52,822 bases of DNA from assembly GCA_913009635.1 (NCBI GenBank), contig CAJVXI010000003.1:1-52822 (forward strand), read 5' to 3'. Of this stretch, positions 13,678 through 49,434 are shown piece after piece. Position numbers and translations under genes: made by a program. Position 1 is the first letter of the stretch. The number at the start of each line of letters is the position of its first letter. This DNA comes from an uncultured bacterium. Its GTDB lineage: Bacteria; Patescibacteriota; Minisyncoccia; UBA6257; UBA9933. The notes below the pieces were generated by a model that saw only the letters and a program-made list of their open reading frames with translations, made no database searches and was not told the origin of the DNA.

Positions 13678-13931
13678 TACGCTTCAAACACCTCGTCTCC
13701 TTCCCTTACTTTATCACTTACTTTAATACCAACTTCCTGACCCTTTTTGGCTTTATCAATGTCTTTATGATCATACTGCATTGAATCAATCTTTTGAGTA
13801 AAATCAACATTAGCGCCTTTAAAATGAACGGTTTCTCCAACCTTCATTGCTTTTTTGAATTTCACAATGGCTACTCCGATATTGCCAAAATAATGAGTAA
13901 CCTCGCCAATTGGTTTCTTTTCCATAATCAC
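13677..13931 (-). CDS. Translation elongation factor-like beta-barrel protein
   Basis: IGEVTHYF..AKKGQEVGIKV..VREGDEV. Confidence 0.8.
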   Translation of the reverse strand: MIMEKKPIGEVTHYFGNIGVAIVKFKKAMKVGETVHFKGANVDFTQKIDSMQYDHKDIDKAKKGQEVGIKVSDKVREGDEVFEA

Positions 13932-14000
13932 TGACTTATGCTGACTTTACACTGACTTATACGGAAATAAACTTCTATATAGATCTGTGTCTAGTCCGTA

Positions 14001-26149: not shown

Positions 26150-27487
26150 TTATCTTTCCCCATAAATTATTTCTTTTGGCGGAATTAGTTTCGGATTAGT
26201 AGGAATAGTAAAATAAAAAGTAGTGCCTCTATTAAGCTCGGATTCAGCCCGAATTTCACCACCATGACGCTTAATTACATTTCTAATAATATAAAGCCCA
26301 AGCCCCAAACCGCTTGGAACAGCTCTAGTAGCGTTTTCAGCCCTAAAAAATTTAGTAAATAATTTATTAATCTGAGTAGGCGGAATGCCAATACCAGTAT
26401 CTTTAACGCTTATTTGAATATACGGCTGGTCCTTAACGCGCTCAAGTCCAACAGTTACTTTACCGTTAGGCACATTATATTTAATAGCATTATCAACAAG
26501 ATTGAATAAAACCATTTTTAATTTTTGCGGATCAACATAAAGGACAATTGAAGGTTCTTCTGGTTTTTGAAAATAAAGCTTAATACCGGATTGTTTTGCC
26601 AACAGCATTAATTCACCAAGAATTTCTTCGAGAAAGCTTATGATATTAACATTCTCAAATTGATAACCAAAACGTCCTTCTTCAATTTTAGAGACATCCA
26701 ATAAATCGTTAATTGTCTTTAAAAGATTTCCGGCAGCTCCGAACCCAGTATCCGCCAACTCTTTTTGGCTTGGCGTTAAAGATTCTTTTGATAAAGATTC
26801 CAAAGCCCAATAAACAGCTGTTGATGGCGTTCTTAACTGATGAGCAGCAACAGTGATAAATTCACTTTTTGAACGCAAAATCGCGATTTCTCGAGTCCTA
26901 TCATGAACTAATTTTACAAACCCCAATAAATGGCCTGATGAATCAATAATTTTATTAGTTGTTACTCTTAATTCTGTTTTTGGTTCTTCAAAAGAAAAAT
27001 CAGCTATTTGAGGGTAAACGCCTACCTCAGACAATTTAATTACTAAAGGAGCTAAAGACGGATAAATTATCTGAGACAATAATTTTAAATTAGGCCCCTT
27101 AGCTTTTTCTAAATCAAATACTTTGCCAATAACTTCTTCTGGTCTAATACTAAAAATCGCTTCAGCTGCCCGATTAAAAATTAAAATCTTAAAATTCGGG
27201 TCGTAAGCAATAACGCCAATATTTAAATTTGAAACAATGCCCGTTAATTCATTACGTTCAAGTTTAATGTCTAAATTTGAACGCGCTAAACGAAGATTAA
27301 CAATAAAAATAATAGTCGCTAAAACAAAAAACGCAATGGCAGTCGTCAAAAACCAAACTCGCGGTAAATAAGGAAAATTAATAACAAGAATTATTAGAAC
27401 TAACGGCAAAAAAATCCAGAACAACCGCATTTCCGGCAAGCCAGCGTATAAAGCAAATTTTTTAAACTGACGCTGAAAAAATTTCAT
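26150..27487 (-). CDS. PAS-domain sensor histidine kinase
   Basis: 2 TM, PAS, AAHQLRTP, NLVDNAIKY, DTGIGI, GLGLGL. Confidence 0.95.
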   Translation of the reverse strand: MKFFQRQFKKFALYAGLPEMRLFWIFLPLVLIILVINFPYLPRVWFLTTAIAFFVLATIIFIVNLRLARSNLDIKLERNELTGIVSNLNIGVIAYDPNFKILIFNRAAEAIFSIRPEEVIGKVFDLEKAKGPNLKLLSQIIYPSLAPLVIKLSEVGVYPQIADFSFEEPKTELRVTTNKIIDSSGHLLGFVKLVHDRTREIAILRSKSEFITVAAHQLRTPSTAVYWALESLSKESLTPSQKELADTGFGAAGNLLKTINDLLDVSKIEEGRFGYQFENVNIISFLEEILGELMLLAKQSGIKLYFQKPEEPSIVLYVDPQKLKMVLFNLVDNAIKYNVPNGKVTVGLERVKDQPYIQISVKDTGIGIPPTQINKLFTKFFRAENATRAVPSGLGLGLYIIRNVIKRHGGEIRAESELNRGTTFYFTIPTNPKLIPPKEIIYGER

Positions 27488-27505
27488 TCTTTTTTAATTA
27501 TACAA

Positions 27506-27695
27506 TAGCGTAATGCCAATATACAAATGCGTACTAATGATACGAATAAATAAATACTAATATATGATGCCAATATACTAATGGATACTAATGATACGAA
27601 TAAATACTAATTCGTATATATTAGTATAATTAGCATGAATTCGTATATTAGCATTTCACATAAGTATAATTAGCATGAATTAGTATATTAGTATT
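27506..27695. repeat. Family D element without a gene
   Basis: Arms closely match the reverse complement of the flanks of the GxxExxY gene at 48309-48707. Confidence 0.85.
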
Positions 27696-28638
27696 TCATT
27701 AAATTTATTCTATCCACTAAGCTCTTAAAACCTAATTCTTCAAAATAAGAAATGGCCTCTTTTTTAGATAAACCAGAATATTTTAAATCCGCGATGTCTA
27801 AATCCAAAGGCGTATCTCGCCGAATAACTGATAAATTACGTGAAAGCAACGCCTGATCTTGAAATTCAAAAATCTTTTTATACGCCTTTTCTTGCCCACC
27901 CTTTTCTAAAAGATTTTCTAAGCTGCCATATTTACTAATTAATGGAGCAGCGGTTTTAGGACCAATCCCAGGCACTCCAGGAATATTATCGGAAGGATCG
28001 CCAACCAATCCTTTATAATCCGGAAGTTGGCTTGGCTTAACCCCATAGCGTTCTTTAATTGCAGCTTCGTTATAAAAAACTGTTTCGCTTATGCCCTTTT
28101 TTATGGTTTCAACCAAAACTTTATCATTATCATCTTCAACCAATTGAAGAATATCTAAGTCACCAGTTAAAATAATAATTCTTAAATCAGAAATCTTTTT
28201 AAATTTTTCCACAGAAGTTCCGATTAAATCATCTGCTTCAAACCCCGGGATTTCAAAAGTTTTTATCTGAAAACTATTAAATAATTTATGCGCTTCAATT
28301 ATTTGAGACACCAATTCATCCGGCGCTTTTGGTCGATGAGCTTTATATTCTTTAAATATCTCTTTTCGAAAAGTTGGTTCTGGCCTGTCAAAAAAAGCGG
28401 CTATGAAATCAATCCTTCGGCCATACTCAGGTCTTCGACTCCGAGACTCAGACTCGAGGAGATTGATGGTGAGCGGAGCCGAACCATCAAATTTCTGTTC
28501 CCGAAAAATTCTTATTAAAATACTTGCCAGTCCATAAATTGCTCCAACAGGTTTTTTGCTTTTAGTGGAAAATGGCGGCAAGGCGTGGAAACAACGATGG
28601 ACCAAAGCATTGGCGTCAATTAATAATAATGTCTTCAT
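27688..28638 (-). CDS. Stand-alone 5'-3' exonuclease (PolA N-terminal domain) with an in-frame repeat insertion
   Basis: LIDANALVHR, YKAHR, FEADDLIG, GDPSDNIPGVPGIGPKTA. Confidence 0.92.
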   Translation of the reverse strand: MKTLLLIDANALVHRCFHALPPFSTKSKKPVGAIYGLASILIRIFREQKFDGSAPLTINLLESESRSRRPEYGRRIDFIAAFFDRPEPTFRKEIFKEYKAHRPKAPDELVSQIIEAHKLFNSFQIKTFEIPGFEADDLIGTSVEKFKKISDLRIIILTGDLDILQLVEDDNDKVLVETIKKGISETVFYNEAAIKERYGVKPSQLPDYKGLVGDPSDNIPGVPGIGPKTAAPLISKYGSLENLLEKGGQEKAYKKIFEFQDQALLSRNLSVIRRDTPLDLDIADLKYSGLSKKEAISYFEELGFKSLVDRINLMKY

Positions 28639-33763: not shown

Positions 33764-34378
33764 ATGGCAGGTCATTCTCATTGGGCAGGAATTAAACATA
33801 AAAAAGGGTTAACTGATCAAAAACGCAGTCAGTTATTTTCTAAATTATTAAAAATGGTTACAATTACCGCTCGTCAAGAACCCAATCCCAAATTTAATTC
33901 CCAGCTCCGAACGGCTATTGAAAAAGCAAAAGAGAATAATGTTCCGCAAAACAATATTGAGCGGGCAATCAAACGCGCTTCAGAGATAGGCGAAAATCTG
34001 GAAGAATTAATTATTGGAGCATACGGCCCAGAAGGCACAACAATGCTTATTGAGGTGGTGACCGACAATAAAAATCGGGCTGTCGCGGAAATTAAAAAAA
34101 TATTAAATGACAATAACGCTAAATGGGCAAAGTCCGGTTCAATCCAATGGGCGTTCAAACACACCACAGACCCATACAGACCCAACACAGACTCATATAG
34201 AAAAGAAAAAATCGGTCAGTATAAGTCTGCGTCAAATCCGTGTGAGTCTGCGAAAAGGTGGCAGGCAAAATTTAAACATAAAATACCGGTTGAAATAAAA
34301 GAAAAAATCCAAAATCTGATTAAAGAACTGGAAAATCACGGCGACGTACAACAAATAACCACAAACGCTGAATTATGA
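33764..34378 (+). CDS. yebC: YebC/PmpR family protein with an in-frame repeat insertion
   Basis: MAGHSHWAGIKHKK, YGPEG, TDNKNRA. Confidence 0.93.
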   Translation: MAGHSHWAGIKHKKGLTDQKRSQLFSKLLKMVTITARQEPNPKFNSQLRTAIEKAKENNVPQNNIERAIKRASEIGENLEELIIGAYGPEGTTMLIEVVTDNKNRAVAEIKKILNDNNAKWAKSGSIQWAFKHTTDPYRPNTDSYRKEKIGQYKSASNPCESAKRWQAKFKHKIPVEIKEKIQNLIKELENHGDVQQITTNAEL

Positions 34379-42377: not shown

Positions 42378-42734
42378 ATGATAAATTCGTATAAAGATTT
42401 AATTGTTTGGCAAAAATCTTTTAATTTAGTTATAGAAATTTATAGATTAACTAATTTATTCCCGAAATCAGAAATTTACGGCTTAGTTGCCCAAATTCGC
42501 CGCTGTGCTGTTTCTATTCCCTCTAATATTGCAGAAGGTTTTGTAAGAAAACATCGAAAAGAATACGCTCAATTTATTTCTATTGCCTTTGGATCTGGCG
42601 CAGAATTGGAAACTCAGCTATTATTATCAAAGGCATTAAAAATGATGCCAGAAAAAGAATTTGTTAAATCAGAAGAATTATTAAATGAAATAATGAAAAT
42701 GTTAAATTCATTATTAACATCTTTAAGAAATTAA
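42378..42734 (+). CDS. Four-helix-bundle (23S rRNA IVS-like) protein
   Basis: SYKDLIVWQKS, FPKSEIYGL..QIRR.AVSIPSNIAEG, GSGAELETQL. Confidence 0.93.
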   Translation: MINSYKDLIVWQKSFNLVIEIYRLTNLFPKSEIYGLVAQIRRCAVSIPSNIAEGFVRKHRKEYAQFISIAFGSGAELETQLLLSKALKMMPEKEFVKSEELLNEIMKMLNSLLTSLRN

Positions 42735-45398: not shown

Positions 45399-47144
45399 TT
45401 AGCTGTCTTTTTGTCCAAGTAATTGTTCCGGACTCGTTGTAATAACTTGGTCTTCAAAATAAGAAGCAATAATTTGAATTGATACGTGTTTTAAGCCCGC
45501 GAAGAATAGTCCTTCACCAATTGCCGCTTCTAATAATAATTGCTTTTCCGCTTCAGTAAGATTAAAAGTTTTAGCTATTAAATCTATGGTTGACGGCGCT
45601 TGTTTTAATAAAAGCTGCAAAGAAGAGTTGGTGATAATCGGCCGACCAAAAGGCGATTCAAGAAAATCAGCGACATTTTGAGTAATAGTAGTAAGTCCTA
45701 AATAATATTTTCTGCAGCGTTTTGCCAAACTAAAAAGAAAGGAAGCGCTGTCCGGGTATTTCATCATCCACCACGCCTCGTCAATAATCATAATTCGTTT
45801 TTTCATTTTGGCGCGAATAAGATTCCAGATAAAGTTAAGCACAATATACATGGCAATCGGCCTAAGTTGTTCTTCCAAATCGCGAATTGAGAAAACAATT
45901 AAACGGTTTTCAATGTCAATATTTGTTTGTTTGTTCGTGAAGCCAGAATAGCTTCCTCGAGTGTATTTTTCTAAACGCTGGGCTAATCCCAGAGCGCCTT
46001 TTGTATTTTCTAAGATAATTTGTAAATCTTCCAATGTTGGCGGTTGGACTTGGGTAAAATCTTTTTTCTCAGGCGTAATGTCTCGCGAAGCGTATGTTTC
46101 GGTAACCGCTCTATCTAAAAGAGCGTCTTCTTCGGGTGTAATTTCGCCAAGCATTAATTTTATCAGGCCGGTAAGATTAAGAATGTGCGATTTAAAAACA
46201 TCAGCAGCATCTTCATTTTCTGGAATAATAGGGATATCAAAGGGATTGATTTGATTTTCTGAAGTTAAGGAGATTTTAAAAAAGCTTCCGCCAACTGATT
46301 CAGTTAATTTTTGATATTCATTTTCTGGGTCAATAACTAAAACGTCAATCCCCATCATTAAAGAGCGGATAATTTCTATTTTAGTGGCGTAAGATTTACC
46401 AGCTCCGGCTTTAGCAAAAACAACCTGATTCGCGTTTTCTAAAGAAAAGCGGTCAAAAATTACTAAGGTATTATTATGACGATTAATACCGTAAAGAATT
46501 CCTTCGTCAGAAGTTAAATCAGTGGAAACAAATGGGAAAAATGAGGAAACAGGACCTGAATTAAGCGGAGTGTGGATGAGAAGCTTGTCTTGACCAAGAG
46601 GTAGTGTTGACTGAACTCCTTCTAATTGTTGGAAAATTGCCGGCTTAACGTAAACTAAATGGCTTTCAAATAAGGAGTTAATGCTTTCTTCTAAGCTATT
46701 AAGCTCTTCAATTGTTTCGCCGTAAATAGTGATATAAATTCCTACGTTAAATAATCGTTCCCTGGCTTGCTGAAGAGAATCTCGAAGTGATTCAATGTCT
46801 TGAAACGCGGTTTCTAAAAGTGGGTCTCTAACAAGACCTTTTTCTTGTTTTTCTAAAAGTTGAGCCTCAATTTGGGCGGTTTTTTTGCGTAGGCTTCTCA
46901 ATGCTATACTTGTGTCAACTGGGTGTATAAAAATGGAAATATCCAAAAGATTAGGAAGATTAATAATTGAATTAAACCAGCCGGTTGCCAGGTAGCGCGG
47001 GTAAGTAAAGATAAAAATTGTCTTCGCGAACTTATCGCCTAATTTTAAATAATTAGGATTGACTTCCATGGCTGCCGGCGCAATAACGTTTTTAATATCT
47101 TTTTCTCCAGCCGTATAAGGTTGAGGTATTTTAATCTTTTCCAT
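45399..47144 (-). CDS. VirB4/TraC-like ATPase
   Basis: AKAGAGKS, IDPENEY, IDEAWW, RCRKY..TQ. Confidence 0.9.
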   Translation of the reverse strand: MEKIKIPQPYTAGEKDIKNVIAPAAMEVNPNYLKLGDKFAKTIFIFTYPRYLATGWFNSIINLPNLLDISIFIHPVDTSIALRSLRKKTAQIEAQLLEKQEKGLVRDPLLETAFQDIESLRDSLQQARERLFNVGIYITIYGETIEELNSLEESINSLFESHLVYVKPAIFQQLEGVQSTLPLGQDKLLIHTPLNSGPVSSFFPFVSTDLTSDEGILYGINRHNNTLVIFDRFSLENANQVVFAKAGAGKSYATKIEIIRSLMMGIDVLVIDPENEYQKLTESVGGSFFKISLTSENQINPFDIPIIPENEDAADVFKSHILNLTGLIKLMLGEITPEEDALLDRAVTETYASRDITPEKKDFTQVQPPTLEDLQIILENTKGALGLAQRLEKYTRGSYSGFTNKQTNIDIENRLIVFSIRDLEEQLRPIAMYIVLNFIWNLIRAKMKKRIMIIDEAWWMMKYPDSASFLFSLAKRCRKYYLGLTTITQNVADFLESPFGRPIITNSSLQLLLKQAPSTIDLIAKTFNLTEAEKQLLLEAAIGEGLFFAGLKHVSIQIIASYFEDQVITTSPEQLLGQKDS

Positions 47145-47580
47145 AAGAGTGTTCGCGAATTAGCGAATTCGCGCGAATATACGAATTTAATTTAAAATTA
47201 GAATTAAGAACTCGTCGGTATTTGATGCCATCCTTAGTAAAATATATTATAATCGCTAATTTGTAATTGCCCGATTTTAGATAATTCATAACTTGTTTAA
47301 TAAAAGGATATCCTAAATTATACCTTGCTTTTAATTCAACGACAATTTTACCGTTAATAACAAAATCTAATCGATATCGTCCAATTTTATTATTTTCATA
47401 TTTTATATCAATAATTTTTTCGCGTTCGTATTTTAATAGCTCATTGTCTAATTCTTTGCTGAAAGCTTTTTGATAATAATCTTCTTTTAAGCCATAACCC
47501 AGATTATTATATGTTTTAAAAGCCGCGCCAATTATTTTATAACTTTCTTTTGGATAAATAATTTCTTTGTTATTCGCCAT
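47131..47580 (-). CDS. GxxExxY (PD-(D/E)xK-like) protein
   Basis: LGYGLKEDYY, RLDFVI..VVELKA, QVMNYL. Confidence 0.92.
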   Translation of the reverse strand: MANNKEIIYPKESYKIIGAAFKTYNNLGYGLKEDYYQKAFSKELDNELLKYEREKIIDIKYENNKIGRYRLDFVINGKIVVELKARYNLGYPFIKQVMNYLKSGNYKLAIIIYFTKDGIKYRRVLNSNFKLNSYIRANSLIREHSYGKD

Positions 47581-47606
47581 ATTCGCAAATATTCGCTAAT
47601 TAGTGA

Positions 47607-48254
47607 TTACTCTTTTGCTATTTTTAATTCTTTTTTCTCTATCGCGCTTGGATTGTAAAGATTATAAAATAATTCAATCAATTCTTCATTATTAAGAGGC
47701 ACTATTCGGAGACCGATTTGCGTAAGACCATTAACTACTCGGTCTGTTTTGTGATTAAGCTGTTGGATTTTTTGCTCCAAAGTTTGCTCTGTTTGAGACG
47801 ATTGTATTTTTTTGCCAAGTTTAAACATATTTAAAAGTTTTTTACCGCCAACAGGAATTTTAATTGGGTCATAAGGAACTACAACAAAGAAAGTTTTTGC
47901 CATTACCGCGTTTTGCTCCACAAATGAACGTATAAATTCTATGTATTCAGAAATTTGATTTTTTAATAGCCCGTTGTCTTCTTGGCTTTTGCGTTCAGCT
48001 AATTTTTTAAGGTAGCCGTCAATATTAAGTTTCCGCGAATGTATTATAAATTGGACAGAAAAGTCCAGTGTATTTAAAAAATTTTGATAGGTATAAGTAA
48101 TAATATTTTGTTCTTCTTCTGATTTAAGTTCAAAATTAATTCCAGCCACCATTAAAATTCGGCGTAACGAACCGTTTTTTAAAACAATTACGCCGTTAAC
48201 AATGTCTTCTATATCAACAAATTGCTGAGTGGAGCCACTTTGTTTTTGTGCCAT
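47607..48254 (-). CDS. TraC-like VirB4-associated protein
   Basis: STQQFV, INFELKSEEEQ, FLNTLDF; lies between PrgI and VirB4. Confidence 0.75.
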   Translation of the reverse strand: MAQKQSGSTQQFVDIEDIVNGVIVLKNGSLRRILMVAGINFELKSEEEQNIITYTYQNFLNTLDFSVQFIIHSRKLNIDGYLKKLAERKSQEDNGLLKNQISEYIEFIRSFVEQNAVMAKTFFVVVPYDPIKIPVGGKKLLNMFKLGKKIQSSQTEQTLEQKIQQLNHKTDRVVNGLTQIGLRIVPLNNEELIELFYNLYNPSAIEKKELKIAKE

Positions 48255-48308
48255 AGTAATGTAATGCTAATATACTAATTCATACTAATTATACTAATAA
48301 ATACTAAT

Positions 48309-48707
48309 TTATGTAAATTTATTTCTTGTATCCGTATCTATCCGAATTATTCTCATTGGCTTAATGTATTGAGATCTAAAGTTTATTAATAATCCAAGTT
48401 TAATATCTGCAATTTGTAAATAGCGTTGTATCTGGCAATAATCTTCGCGAGTAATAATTCTTTTAGTTTTTATCTCGATAATAATTTTATTGTCTATTAA
48501 AAAATCAACTATATTACCGGTATCGCCAAGAATAAACTCTCTTTTATAAGAAATTTTGATTTCTTTTAATTGTTTTTCTATTTTATCGGCATACTGTTTT
48601 TCGCGTGCATATCTTCCTATTTCATTATGAATATCAAAACAAATACCGGTAATAATATAAGAAAGTTCAGGGTAAATTAATTTATTATTTTTGTTATTCG
48701 TATTCAT
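48309..48707 (-). CDS. GxxExxY family protein (variant motif)
   Basis: [40 protein letters not shown]; ATG at 48707. Confidence 0.9.
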
Positions 48708-48744
48708 TAGTATCATTAGCACGCATTCGTATATTGGCATTGCG

Positions 48745-49275
48745 CTATCTATAATCAACGCGTTTGGCAATTTCCTTTTCTCCGGTAATTTTTCTAAAAA
48801 GCTGAAATTTTTCTTTGGGCTTTTTCCCCCAAAAAGGTGTTCTTATGGTTTTTTCTCTTTTTGGCACGGGATTTTTGGTGGTCAAAAGATTTTGCCATAG
48901 TTTTTTTATGTTCGGTGTTTCAGAAAAAAATTTTTCCAATTTTTCTCTTTTAGAAATAACAGCTTCTGTTGTTGGAATTTCAATAAATTTTTCTTCTACT
49001 TCTCTTTGCCAAAGATAAAGTCGTGGCCTCCAGATAAAGCCCATAGCCAGCCAGAGGATTTCAGGAAGTGGTTTTCCGTTGTATTTTATAAGAGCTAAAG
49101 CCAGCGCTATTATCGTTAAAAAAACCGAAATTAAAAACCATAACCACATTTGTATGATAAAAAAAAGCATAAAACTAATAAGTCCAGCACCGGCTAAATA
49201 TAAAAATTGCCTTAAGCTTAAAGGTCCAATAATTTTATTTTCAACATCAATAAATTGTGGGACTTGAAATTGCAT
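48745..49275 (-). CDS. PrgI family protein
   Basis: [24 protein letters not shown], 2 TM. Confidence 0.85.
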
Positions 49276-49332
49276 AAAATTAATTCAAAATGTAAATATC
49301 AAAAATCAAAATGACAAATTAAAATGTCAAAA

Positions 49333-49434
49333 TTATTTCTTGCTTTTTAAAGTTAAAATGCTAGAAGCTAAGATATTTGCTATTTCAATAAGTTCATCTA
49401 ATAACCATTTTAATTCTGATTGCTCTTTTGAATT
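49333..49434 (-). pseudogene. C-terminal remnant of a four-helix-bundle gene inside family C arms
   Basis: NSKEQSELKWLLDELIEIANILASSILTLKSKK*, no start codon. Confidence 0.65.

Follow-up and report, generated by a model that had tools for sequence, protein, structure and literature searches.

What is the palindromic stretch that separates a 5'-3' exonuclease gene from a histidine kinase gene in this uncultured bacterium, and how did it come to lie there? The window, by which we mean the whole stretch of 52,822 nucleotides that was analysed, is contig C3 of a 713-kb genome (G000; 26 contigs, 98% complete, 33-36% G+C). The initial annotation had taken positions 27506-27695 for a gene-less copy of a GxxExxY cassette found elsewhere in the window. 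We consider it probable, at roughly 0.6, that the locus holds a mobile hairpin-arm cassette in gene-less, non-autonomous form, the full form of which carries a GxxExxY nuclease gene at its apex.

A gene-less element with the arms of a nuclease cassette

The similarity behind the initial annotation was confirmed at both ends. The left half had been likened to the reverse complement of 48696-48747; the two 38-mers quoted for it differ at 3 of 38 positions, and 48701-48755 on the minus strand aligns at 88% (E = 9.5e-13). The right half had been likened to the reverse complement of 48256-48308, and 48260-48309 on the minus strand aligns at 90% (E = 2.7e-13). The same arms occur in the same order, as expected of a gene-less relative of the cassette, and both arms are duplicated as had been noticed (Table 1). 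The annotated stretch is real, although its limits were drawn slightly too narrow: identity with a copy at C1:61108-61305 sets the unit at 27505-27702.

Table 1. Features of the window discussed in the text
Feature	Position	Strand	Basis or remark
Gene-less double hairpin element (family 1)	27505..27702	left-to-right polarity on +	homology to GxxExxY cassette arms
Left arms, two in tandem	27513-27565 and 27567-27619	+	direct repeat D1, 83% alike
Right arms, two in tandem	27620-27658 and 27660-27698	+	direct repeat D2, 92% alike
Histidine kinase gene, downstream of the element	26150..27487	-	HATPase_c 7.9e-30, HisKA 6.3e-12
5'-3' exonuclease gene	27688..28638	-	PF02739 2.8e-42, PF01367 9.8e-30
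Filled cassette (left arm, GxxExxY gene, right arm)	48255..48744	-	inverted arms
GxxExxY gene, predicted PD-(D/E)XK nuclease	48309..48716	-	PF13366 70 bits vs 22; TIGR04256 64.5 bits vs 35
Second GxxExxY cassette	47121..47625 (gene 47131-47580)	-	TIGR04256 102.3 bits; arms with GCGAAT motif
PF05635 gene (23S rRNA intervening-sequence protein, Avd-like)	42378-42734		133.8 bits

The left arm (about 53 nt) and the right arm (about 39 nt) are imperfect reverse complements of each other. Each left arm contains four copies of TAC[G/T/A]AAT (starts at 27522, 27532, 27541, 27555, 27576, 27586, 27595 and 27605), and each right arm has four of the complementary motif, with starts from 27610 to 27687 and spacings of 10, 9, 10, 8, 22, 10 and 8. 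Motif spacing within the arms of this family is mostly 8-10 nt, or about one helical turn. The 198-nt element is predicted to fold as a single rod, with a free energy of -48.2 kcal/mol compared with -30.1 for shuffled sequences (sd 3.3, z -5.5). A search of Rfam assigned the element to no family, the top match being a miRNA precursor below threshold (19.5 bits; gathering score 110).

Dispersed copies of the element within the genome

A search of the genome with window positions 27495-27705 returned 51 matches, which merged into 15 regions with E values from 1e-13 to 1e-107. We refer to these copies as family 1. They amount to 13 loci if the contig ends at C5:47295 and C20:1 form one locus. Four loci are doubles of about 200 nt, namely 27505-27702 itself, C1:61108 (100% over 198 nt), C1:27485 (97%) and C1:14817 (96%). 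Six loci hold singles of about 95-104 nt, the filled cassette is one locus, and arm numbers are unequal at C10:11533 and at the C5/C20 contig ends. Both contigs terminate within family-1 copies (C5:47295-47416 and C20:1-186), C20 starting with at least three tandem left arms, which indicates that the repeat broke the assembly. Base composition predicts 3.9 occurrences of the short sequence GCGAAGCG in the genome; 44 were counted.

The region is AT-rich and made of short repeats, and the initial annotation had itself named a low-complexity background as the way in which the similarity might be spurious. The alignments stand above that background, with E values of about 1e-13, and exceed shuffle controls. 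The 12-mer core, allowing up to two mismatches, occurs 13 times against 5.39 expected, a count attained by 0 of 100 dinucleotide shuffles, and the right-arm 15-mer occurs 7 times against 0.68 expected from dinucleotide shuffles. Conserved copies are also found in other genera and in metagenomes (see below). We regard chance similarity of AT-rich, low-complexity DNA as already refuted.

What did not survive was the view of the two loci as the clearest filled/empty pair in the window. They are members of a set of at least 13 dispersed loci, and the nearest kin of 27505-27702 are the gene-less doubles (96-100%), not the cassette (88-90%). Genuine filled/empty comparisons are those of the same site between genomes, not of the 27.5-kb and 48-kb loci of the window. 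The pairing had also implied a history, in which a full cassette at the exonuclease-kinase junction lost its gene there. In-situ decay does occur, given that a partly deleted cassette lies at another junction in another genome (L127, see below); for this junction we consider it very improbable. A GxxExxY gene was found at the junction in 0 of 6 syntenic relatives (tblastn, E <= 1e-5), which was the check that the initial annotation had proposed, and independent decay would not yield a copy identical over its whole length at C1:61108, duplication included, with two more at 96-97%. Since the identical copy is on another contig and shares the arm duplication, the element appears to have spread as a gene-less double, and the copy at 27505-27702 probably arrived already gene-less and doubled.

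Junctions occupied here are empty in relatives

The element at 27505-27702 is antisense to both of its neighbours. Element sequence makes up the final four codons and the stop codon of the exonuclease (27688-27702), whose C-terminus departs from those of the congeners G001 and G002 precisely at the element boundary, and 17 nt of non-element spacer are left before the kinase (27488-27504). Judged from sequence, the element has replaced most of the old spacer. The exonuclease-kinase synteny is kept in 6 of 25 relatives. In G001 the junction is empty, with a 72-nt spacer that contains a hairpin followed by a T run, and a TATAAT box; by eye, the hairpin and T run suggest a terminator. In G002 and G026 the junction is occupied by unrelated repeat elements. 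The exonuclease gene itself has a 26-residue in-frame insert after residue 51 (window ~28408-28485) that is absent from G001 and G002, and the exonuclease of G011 has a different insert at that position.

Three further family-1 junctions were compared in five genomes each: L14-L24, that of two very large genes, which are probably rpoB-rpoC, and one on contig C11. The junctions were empty in 3/5, 2/5 and 3/5 genomes, respectively, with spacers of 0-35 nt or overlapping genes. The family-1 copies at these junctions span stop to start, and one provides the stop codon itself. No target-site duplication was found when the three occupied junctions were set against their empty counterparts; a spacer of 0-5 nt had been replaced, and AGCG is present at both element ends and absent from the empty sites. 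Different, unrelated hairpin families were seen at one and the same junction in different genomes. Because orthologous junctions are empty in close relatives, we conclude that the copies are insertions.

The junction of the filled cassette gave a similar picture. The cluster of PrgI, VirB4 N-part and VirB4 C-part genes is conserved in relatives, G014 giving no match, and the PrgI-VirB4N junction that holds the cassette in G000 is a 47-nt spacer in G001. No GxxExxY gene (tblastn, E <= 1e-4) was detected at the PrgI-VirB4N junction in 23 relatives' loci or at the N-C junction in 25. The second cassette of the window separates the gene for the VirB4 N-part (47607-48254) from that for the C-part (45399-47144). 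We considered whether it had split VirB4 and rejected this, since the split is old: of 26 loci from relatives, all but one encode the N-part in a frame of its own (214-324 aa). In the window, VirB4 is encoded as two genes (45399-48254), whose products are about 215 aa (N-part) and about 580 aa (C-part) long; only in G029 are they fused (816 aa).

Stop-to-start placement, folding and arm mismatches

Placement relative to genes is regular. In G000, 11 of 13 loci lie along the direction of transcription, with the left end at or over the upstream stop codon and the right end 0-24 nt before the downstream start; counting right ends that precede a same-strand start by 2-30 nt gives 11 of 13 loci in G000 and 11 of 15 in relatives. 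The metagenomic matches listed represent 76 distinct sites, and as judged from 250 nt of flank the element fills a stop-to-start junction at 43 of them. The stop codon lies 2-10 nt before the left core at 32/38 of these listed sites, and 9-22 nt separate the end of the right core from an ATG at 32/37. Family-1 copies fill the tiny intergenic gaps of an ultra-small (CPR) bacterium. Several copies, together with a member of one other hairpin family (C4:16230), end in TTAAGCGAAGCG directly followed by ATG; this type of right flank was seen in 6 of 13 family-1 copies in G000 and in 4 of 76 metagenomic sites among the matches listed.

The translation context may explain why such insertions are tolerated. 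A Shine-Dalgarno-like 4-mer at -20 to -5 precedes only 34 of 370 long ORFs in G000, and a genome that barely uses Shine-Dalgarno sequences loses no ribosome-binding site when DNA is inserted just before a start codon. Leaders in G000 are rich in A and T, and 62% have T at -1. Insertion at gene junctions would then be almost harmless, and copies would persist because the rod fold brings the stop codon of one gene and the start codon of the next to the two feet of the hairpin. This argument fits 27505-27702 only loosely, since that copy is antisense to its neighbours.

Tight stop-to-start spacing is also what would be expected if the copies were host RNA structures, such as an RNase III site, an mRNA stabiliser or insulator, or a termination-initiation coupler, that had been spread by selection. 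All family-1 copies fold as rods (z -2.2 to -7.3), G000 encodes RNase III (247 bits against a cut-off of 166), and this enzyme is reported to excise rRNA intervening sequences of like architecture (PMC4990558). We nevertheless think that such a function is an improbable explanation for the copies. Presence and absence vary among congeners, unrelated hairpin families share one junction across genomes, and the reverse strand folds equally well or better in 9 of 11 copies. Both orientations occur at the 76 metagenomic sites listed, 33 being sense only, 22 antisense only, 4 both and 17 neither, which is a mild bias. For the antisense copy at 27505-27702, a scan of 27350-27850 found neither terminators nor promoter-like sites, 3.3 of the latter being expected, so that an outward promoter is also unsupported.

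The arms themselves argue in the same direction. At the variable base of the outermost motif, a mismatch between the arms is kept in 52 of 62 metagenomic copies (L187-L266), and the two sides co-vary there against Watson-Crick pairing (Fisher p = 1.3e-4, a value overstated by the relatedness of the copies). Low-pairing stem positions recur about once per motif, and the conserved mismatches of the metagenomic copies are uncompensated. When 75 metagenomic copies were aligned with MAFFT, RNAalifold found the outer stem only; as the search pattern had already fixed that stem, the result is uninformative. We conclude that the arms are not tuned or selected for perfect pairing. Conservation of the mismatch means that the element has two distinguishable ends, and it weakens accounts that rest on hairpin stability alone.

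The filled cassette and its predicted nuclease

The arms of the filled cassette (48263-48308 and 48696-48741) are 46 nt long, inverted and 83% complementary. The cassette fills the entire gap between the PrgI stop codon (48745-48747) and the start of the VirB4 N-part gene (48254), and the start codon of the nuclease gene (48716 or 48707) falls within the left arm together with the first codons. In 38 GxxExxY sequences, in-frame copies included, E36, K80, Q92 and Y96 are invariant and D68 and E78 are at least 90% conserved; this set corresponds to the catalytic E, D and ExK of PD-(D/E)XK enzymes plus QxxxY.

The AF2 model of the protein (pLDDT 91.4) matched the BpuSI nuclease domain and 3ijm (Z 8.2 each), the Cas4 protein SSO0001 (Z 7.5), Hjc (6.7) and the homing-endonuclease domain 3r3p (Z 5.4), and the top Foldseek match was Cas4 4ic1 (E = 9.6e-4). 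No sequence relatives of either GxxExxY protein of the window were found in the PDB. On this model, the product of 48309-48716 is a predicted nuclease with a PD-(D/E)XK, restriction-endonuclease-like fold. Because its structural neighbours are generic PD-(D/E)XK nucleases, we assign it to no sub-family.

Contigs of three DNA runs were compared with 45400-49400. Single contigs from two of the runs, X3 and X4, span the right arm of the cassette and the second cassette with 0-1 differences, and they cover the GxxExxY gene fully (X3) or mostly (X4). The only joints that skip a gene have sides just 20-38 nt long with extra letters between them; they probably derive from other loci or organisms, and we conclude nothing from them.

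Distribution of arms and gene across genomes and metagenomes

Of 24 genomes from the same family, 11 contained family-1 DNA (73-96% identity), compared with 0 of 16 from other families of the order. A metagenome scan gave at least 121 stretches with a family-1 element, and viral contigs gave two exact-pattern matches. Close homologues of the nuclease number 523 in total; the 120 listed are 63-100% identical, and their source names span several CPR groups.

We examined the flanks of the six closest genome_contigs homologues among the matches listed (63-70% amino-acid identity), whose contigs are labelled Portnoybacteria, Komeilibacteria, Saccharibacteria and others. When the arm alignments were compared with the best of 200 shuffles, both arms exceeded it at three of the six loci and one arm at two, while at the sixth one arm merely tied. 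On these alignments, arms and gene have been inherited or transferred together across CPR phyla. At L127:1400-1950, on a contig labelled Wolfebacteria, a family-1 cassette occupies the same PrgI-VirB4 junction with its nuclease gene truncated at the 5' end and a 79-aa frame left. We regard it as a plausible intermediate toward a gene-less copy.

No GxxExxY gene was detected by tblastn within 1.5 kb of 27 family-1 loci from relatives. Only 10 of the 50 other family genomes searched yielded the close nuclease subfamily (E <= 1e-25), and G014 and G021, the relatives richest in family-1-like matches, did not. Across 24 genomes, family-1 copy number was not significantly correlated with the number of GxxExxY genes (rho 0.29, p = 0.17) or of Y1 transposase genes (rho 0.35, p = 0.10).

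Sister elements and the question of the mover

G000 has six GxxExxY paralogs, two of them in the window, and the arms of each bear their own short motif. Both arms of the second cassette recur gene-less at 10 or more loci, for example at C13:19152-19237, where they reach from stop to start codon. Two further paralogs lie in frame within essential genes: RecG (C9:23114-25759, 881 aa) has a PDDEXK_3 domain at 470-582, between DEAD and Helicase_C, and LepA (C19:2696-5014, 772 aa) holds a complete GxxExxY domain. Both inserts keep all catalytic residues, and apart from the insert each host gene contains a gene-less palindrome that is likewise in frame. G008 (902 aa) and G027 (888 aa) share the RecG insert at the same position, and 23 of 25 relatives, including both congeners, lack it; the right arm of this insert recurs at about 10 loci. 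By the recurrence of their arms, two paralogs thus own gene-less arm families. Copies of the RecG-insert arm family also occur in the window, one (34170-34260) read in frame inside ORF 33764-34378, which may be YebC-like from its N-terminal sequence, and one (13923-13965) in the gap ahead of 14001.

Other genes are found in cassettes of the same build. G000 has 12 PF05635 matches, one of which lies in the window (Table 1). In relatives, the PrgI junction is taken up by a four-helix-bundle gene of PF05635, bounded by inverted arms of its own (G008, in two copies, and G028), and a PF05635 cassette occupies the VirB4 N/C junction in G007. Since these non-nuclease cassettes lie at the very same junctions, nuclease cargo is unnecessary for the architecture.

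Y1 (HUH) enzymes of the IS200/IS605 and REP/RAYT kinds work on DNA hairpins and leave no target duplication on insertion, and the gene-less copies could accordingly be REPIN-like hairpins moved by such transposases, with GxxExxY as cargo or passenger. Two RAYT/IS200-like Y1_Tnp genes in G000 score above the cut-off of 23 (C8:30984-31736, 44.5 bits; C15:2667-3527, 40.9 bits), the genomes richest in family-1-like matches have several (G014 five, G021 three, G000 two), and the compared junctions are free of target duplication. The Y1 genes have hairpins of their own, however: a small GC-rich repeat particular to each gene flanks it and even interrupts it in frame. This repeat is the expected cognate substrate and is unlike the family-1 arms. 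These hairpin regions (C8:30984-31771 and C15:2667-3555) contain hairpins that recur at a handful of other genome sites. Moreover, a Y1_Tnp match is absent in 6 of 11 family-mates carrying family-1 DNA, the correlation given above is not significant, and family-1 arms co-travel with the GxxExxY gene across phyla. We consider mobilisation by a Y1 enzyme unlikely.

How, then, might a non-autonomous copy of the nuclease cassette arise and move? Gene-less copies would have arisen through deletion of the gene between the arms, for which the 5'-truncated intermediate at the same PrgI junction (L127) is our reason. A nuclease that recognises the arms, most likely GxxExxY, may then mobilise the copies in trans by cleavage and repair-copying, a step that we propose only tentatively. 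In favour of GxxExxY as the mover are the co-travel of arms and gene, the repeated pairing of a paralog with a gene-less family and the homing-like occupancy of the RecG site; against it are the patchiness of the subfamily (10/50 genomes) and the PF05635 cassettes of the same build. As a guess, we favour the nuclease, itself a doubtful candidate, over the still less likely Y1 enzymes, and leave the rest to host functions or other factors.

A broader and speculative reading, which we hold to be possible but do not expect, is that GxxExxY proteins are the mobilising nucleases of undescribed selfish elements of CPR bacteria, a PD-(D/E)XK counterpart of REPIN/RAYT. Each paralog would have its own mismatched arms and gene-less family, insertion would be exactly between stop and start or in frame, as in RecG and LepA, and the elements would be harmless by folding out where Shine-Dalgarno sequences are not used.

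Significance and comparison with known systems

GxxExxY/PDDEXK_3 is a large family, of which the closest subfamily alone has 523 homologues. A Pfam-based survey gives its function as unknown (PMC3424549). Our literature search by family names, based on partial texts, found no study of its function; there the family figures only as a domain-table entry or as functionally uncharacterised, and the remaining papers deal with algae and an algal virus. Nor did the partial texts contain published cassettes of this build between protein genes; they cover CPR rRNA insertions, Coxiella intervening sequences and MITEs, and to that extent the wider element picture appears undescribed. If GxxExxY proteins drive hairpin elements, the family gains a function, and it would be explained why genomes of about 0.7 Mb carry so many palindromes, both where genes meet and within essential genes. 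In practical terms, such elements break assemblies and alter annotated gene ends, as at the exonuclease C-terminus.

Bacterial MITEs (Correia/NEMIS) and the Rickettsia palindromic elements are short, non-autonomous hairpins with inverted repeats that lie in or between genes. Family 1 shares with MITEs its terminal inverted repeats, shortness and many copies. Relatives of the family-1 element are read through in frame, as are the Rickettsia elements. Unlike MITEs, family 1 has neither a target-site duplication nor a DDE-type parent insertion sequence; a longer form with the same arms does exist, and its gene is a predicted PD-(D/E)XK nuclease, not a recognised transposase.

REP/REPIN sequences with their RAYT genes are multi-copy hairpin repeats in gene gaps, accompanied by a single-copy enzyme gene flanked by inverted repeats, with a patchy distribution. 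Family 1 resembles them as a hairpin repeat of about 100 nt in gene gaps, with a single-copy enzyme gene between inverted copies, a patchy distribution and no target duplication seen. It differs in its enzyme, which is PD-(D/E)XK and not HUH Y1, and in that the gene lies within the hairpin apex. Its arms are long and AT-rich with four short motifs, unlike those of REPINs, its copies abut stop and start codons, and the Y1 genes of G000 are flanked by other hairpins and not by family-1 arms.

I-Ssp6803I is a PD-(D/E)XK homing endonuclease. Like such enzymes (I-Bth0305I, 3r3p), GxxExxY is a small predicted nuclease in a selfish insert, and the same site is occupied in distant genomes (the RecG site in G000, G008 and G027; the PrgI junction in G000 and L127), with most relatives lacking the insert. 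The match to 3r3p is no better than those to many other PD-(D/E)XK proteins. Unlike homing endonucleases, GxxExxY cassettes lack an intron or intein and have inverted arms and gene-less derivatives at unrelated sites; because those sites are many, homing alone is an insufficient explanation.

The cassettes also resemble in build the intervening sequences of 23S rRNA with an S23p/IVP reading frame (PMC4990558, PMC11270868). The terminal inverted repeats of these sequences form a stem with the reading frame at the apex, and their distribution is sporadic and apparently reflects horizontal acquisition. The GxxExxY cassette likewise has complementary ends that form a stem, an apex reading frame and a sporadic distribution that suggests horizontal acquisition. 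In relatives, the junctions that hold GxxExxY cassettes in G000 are occupied by PF05635 (IVP) cassettes built in the same way. Family 1 differs in lying in gaps between protein genes or within reading frames rather than in an rRNA helix, in its nuclease cargo and in its many gene-less copies. If GxxExxY proteins do drive hairpin elements, this bears on the origin of rRNA intervening sequences, since cassettes of the same build lie at mRNA junctions.
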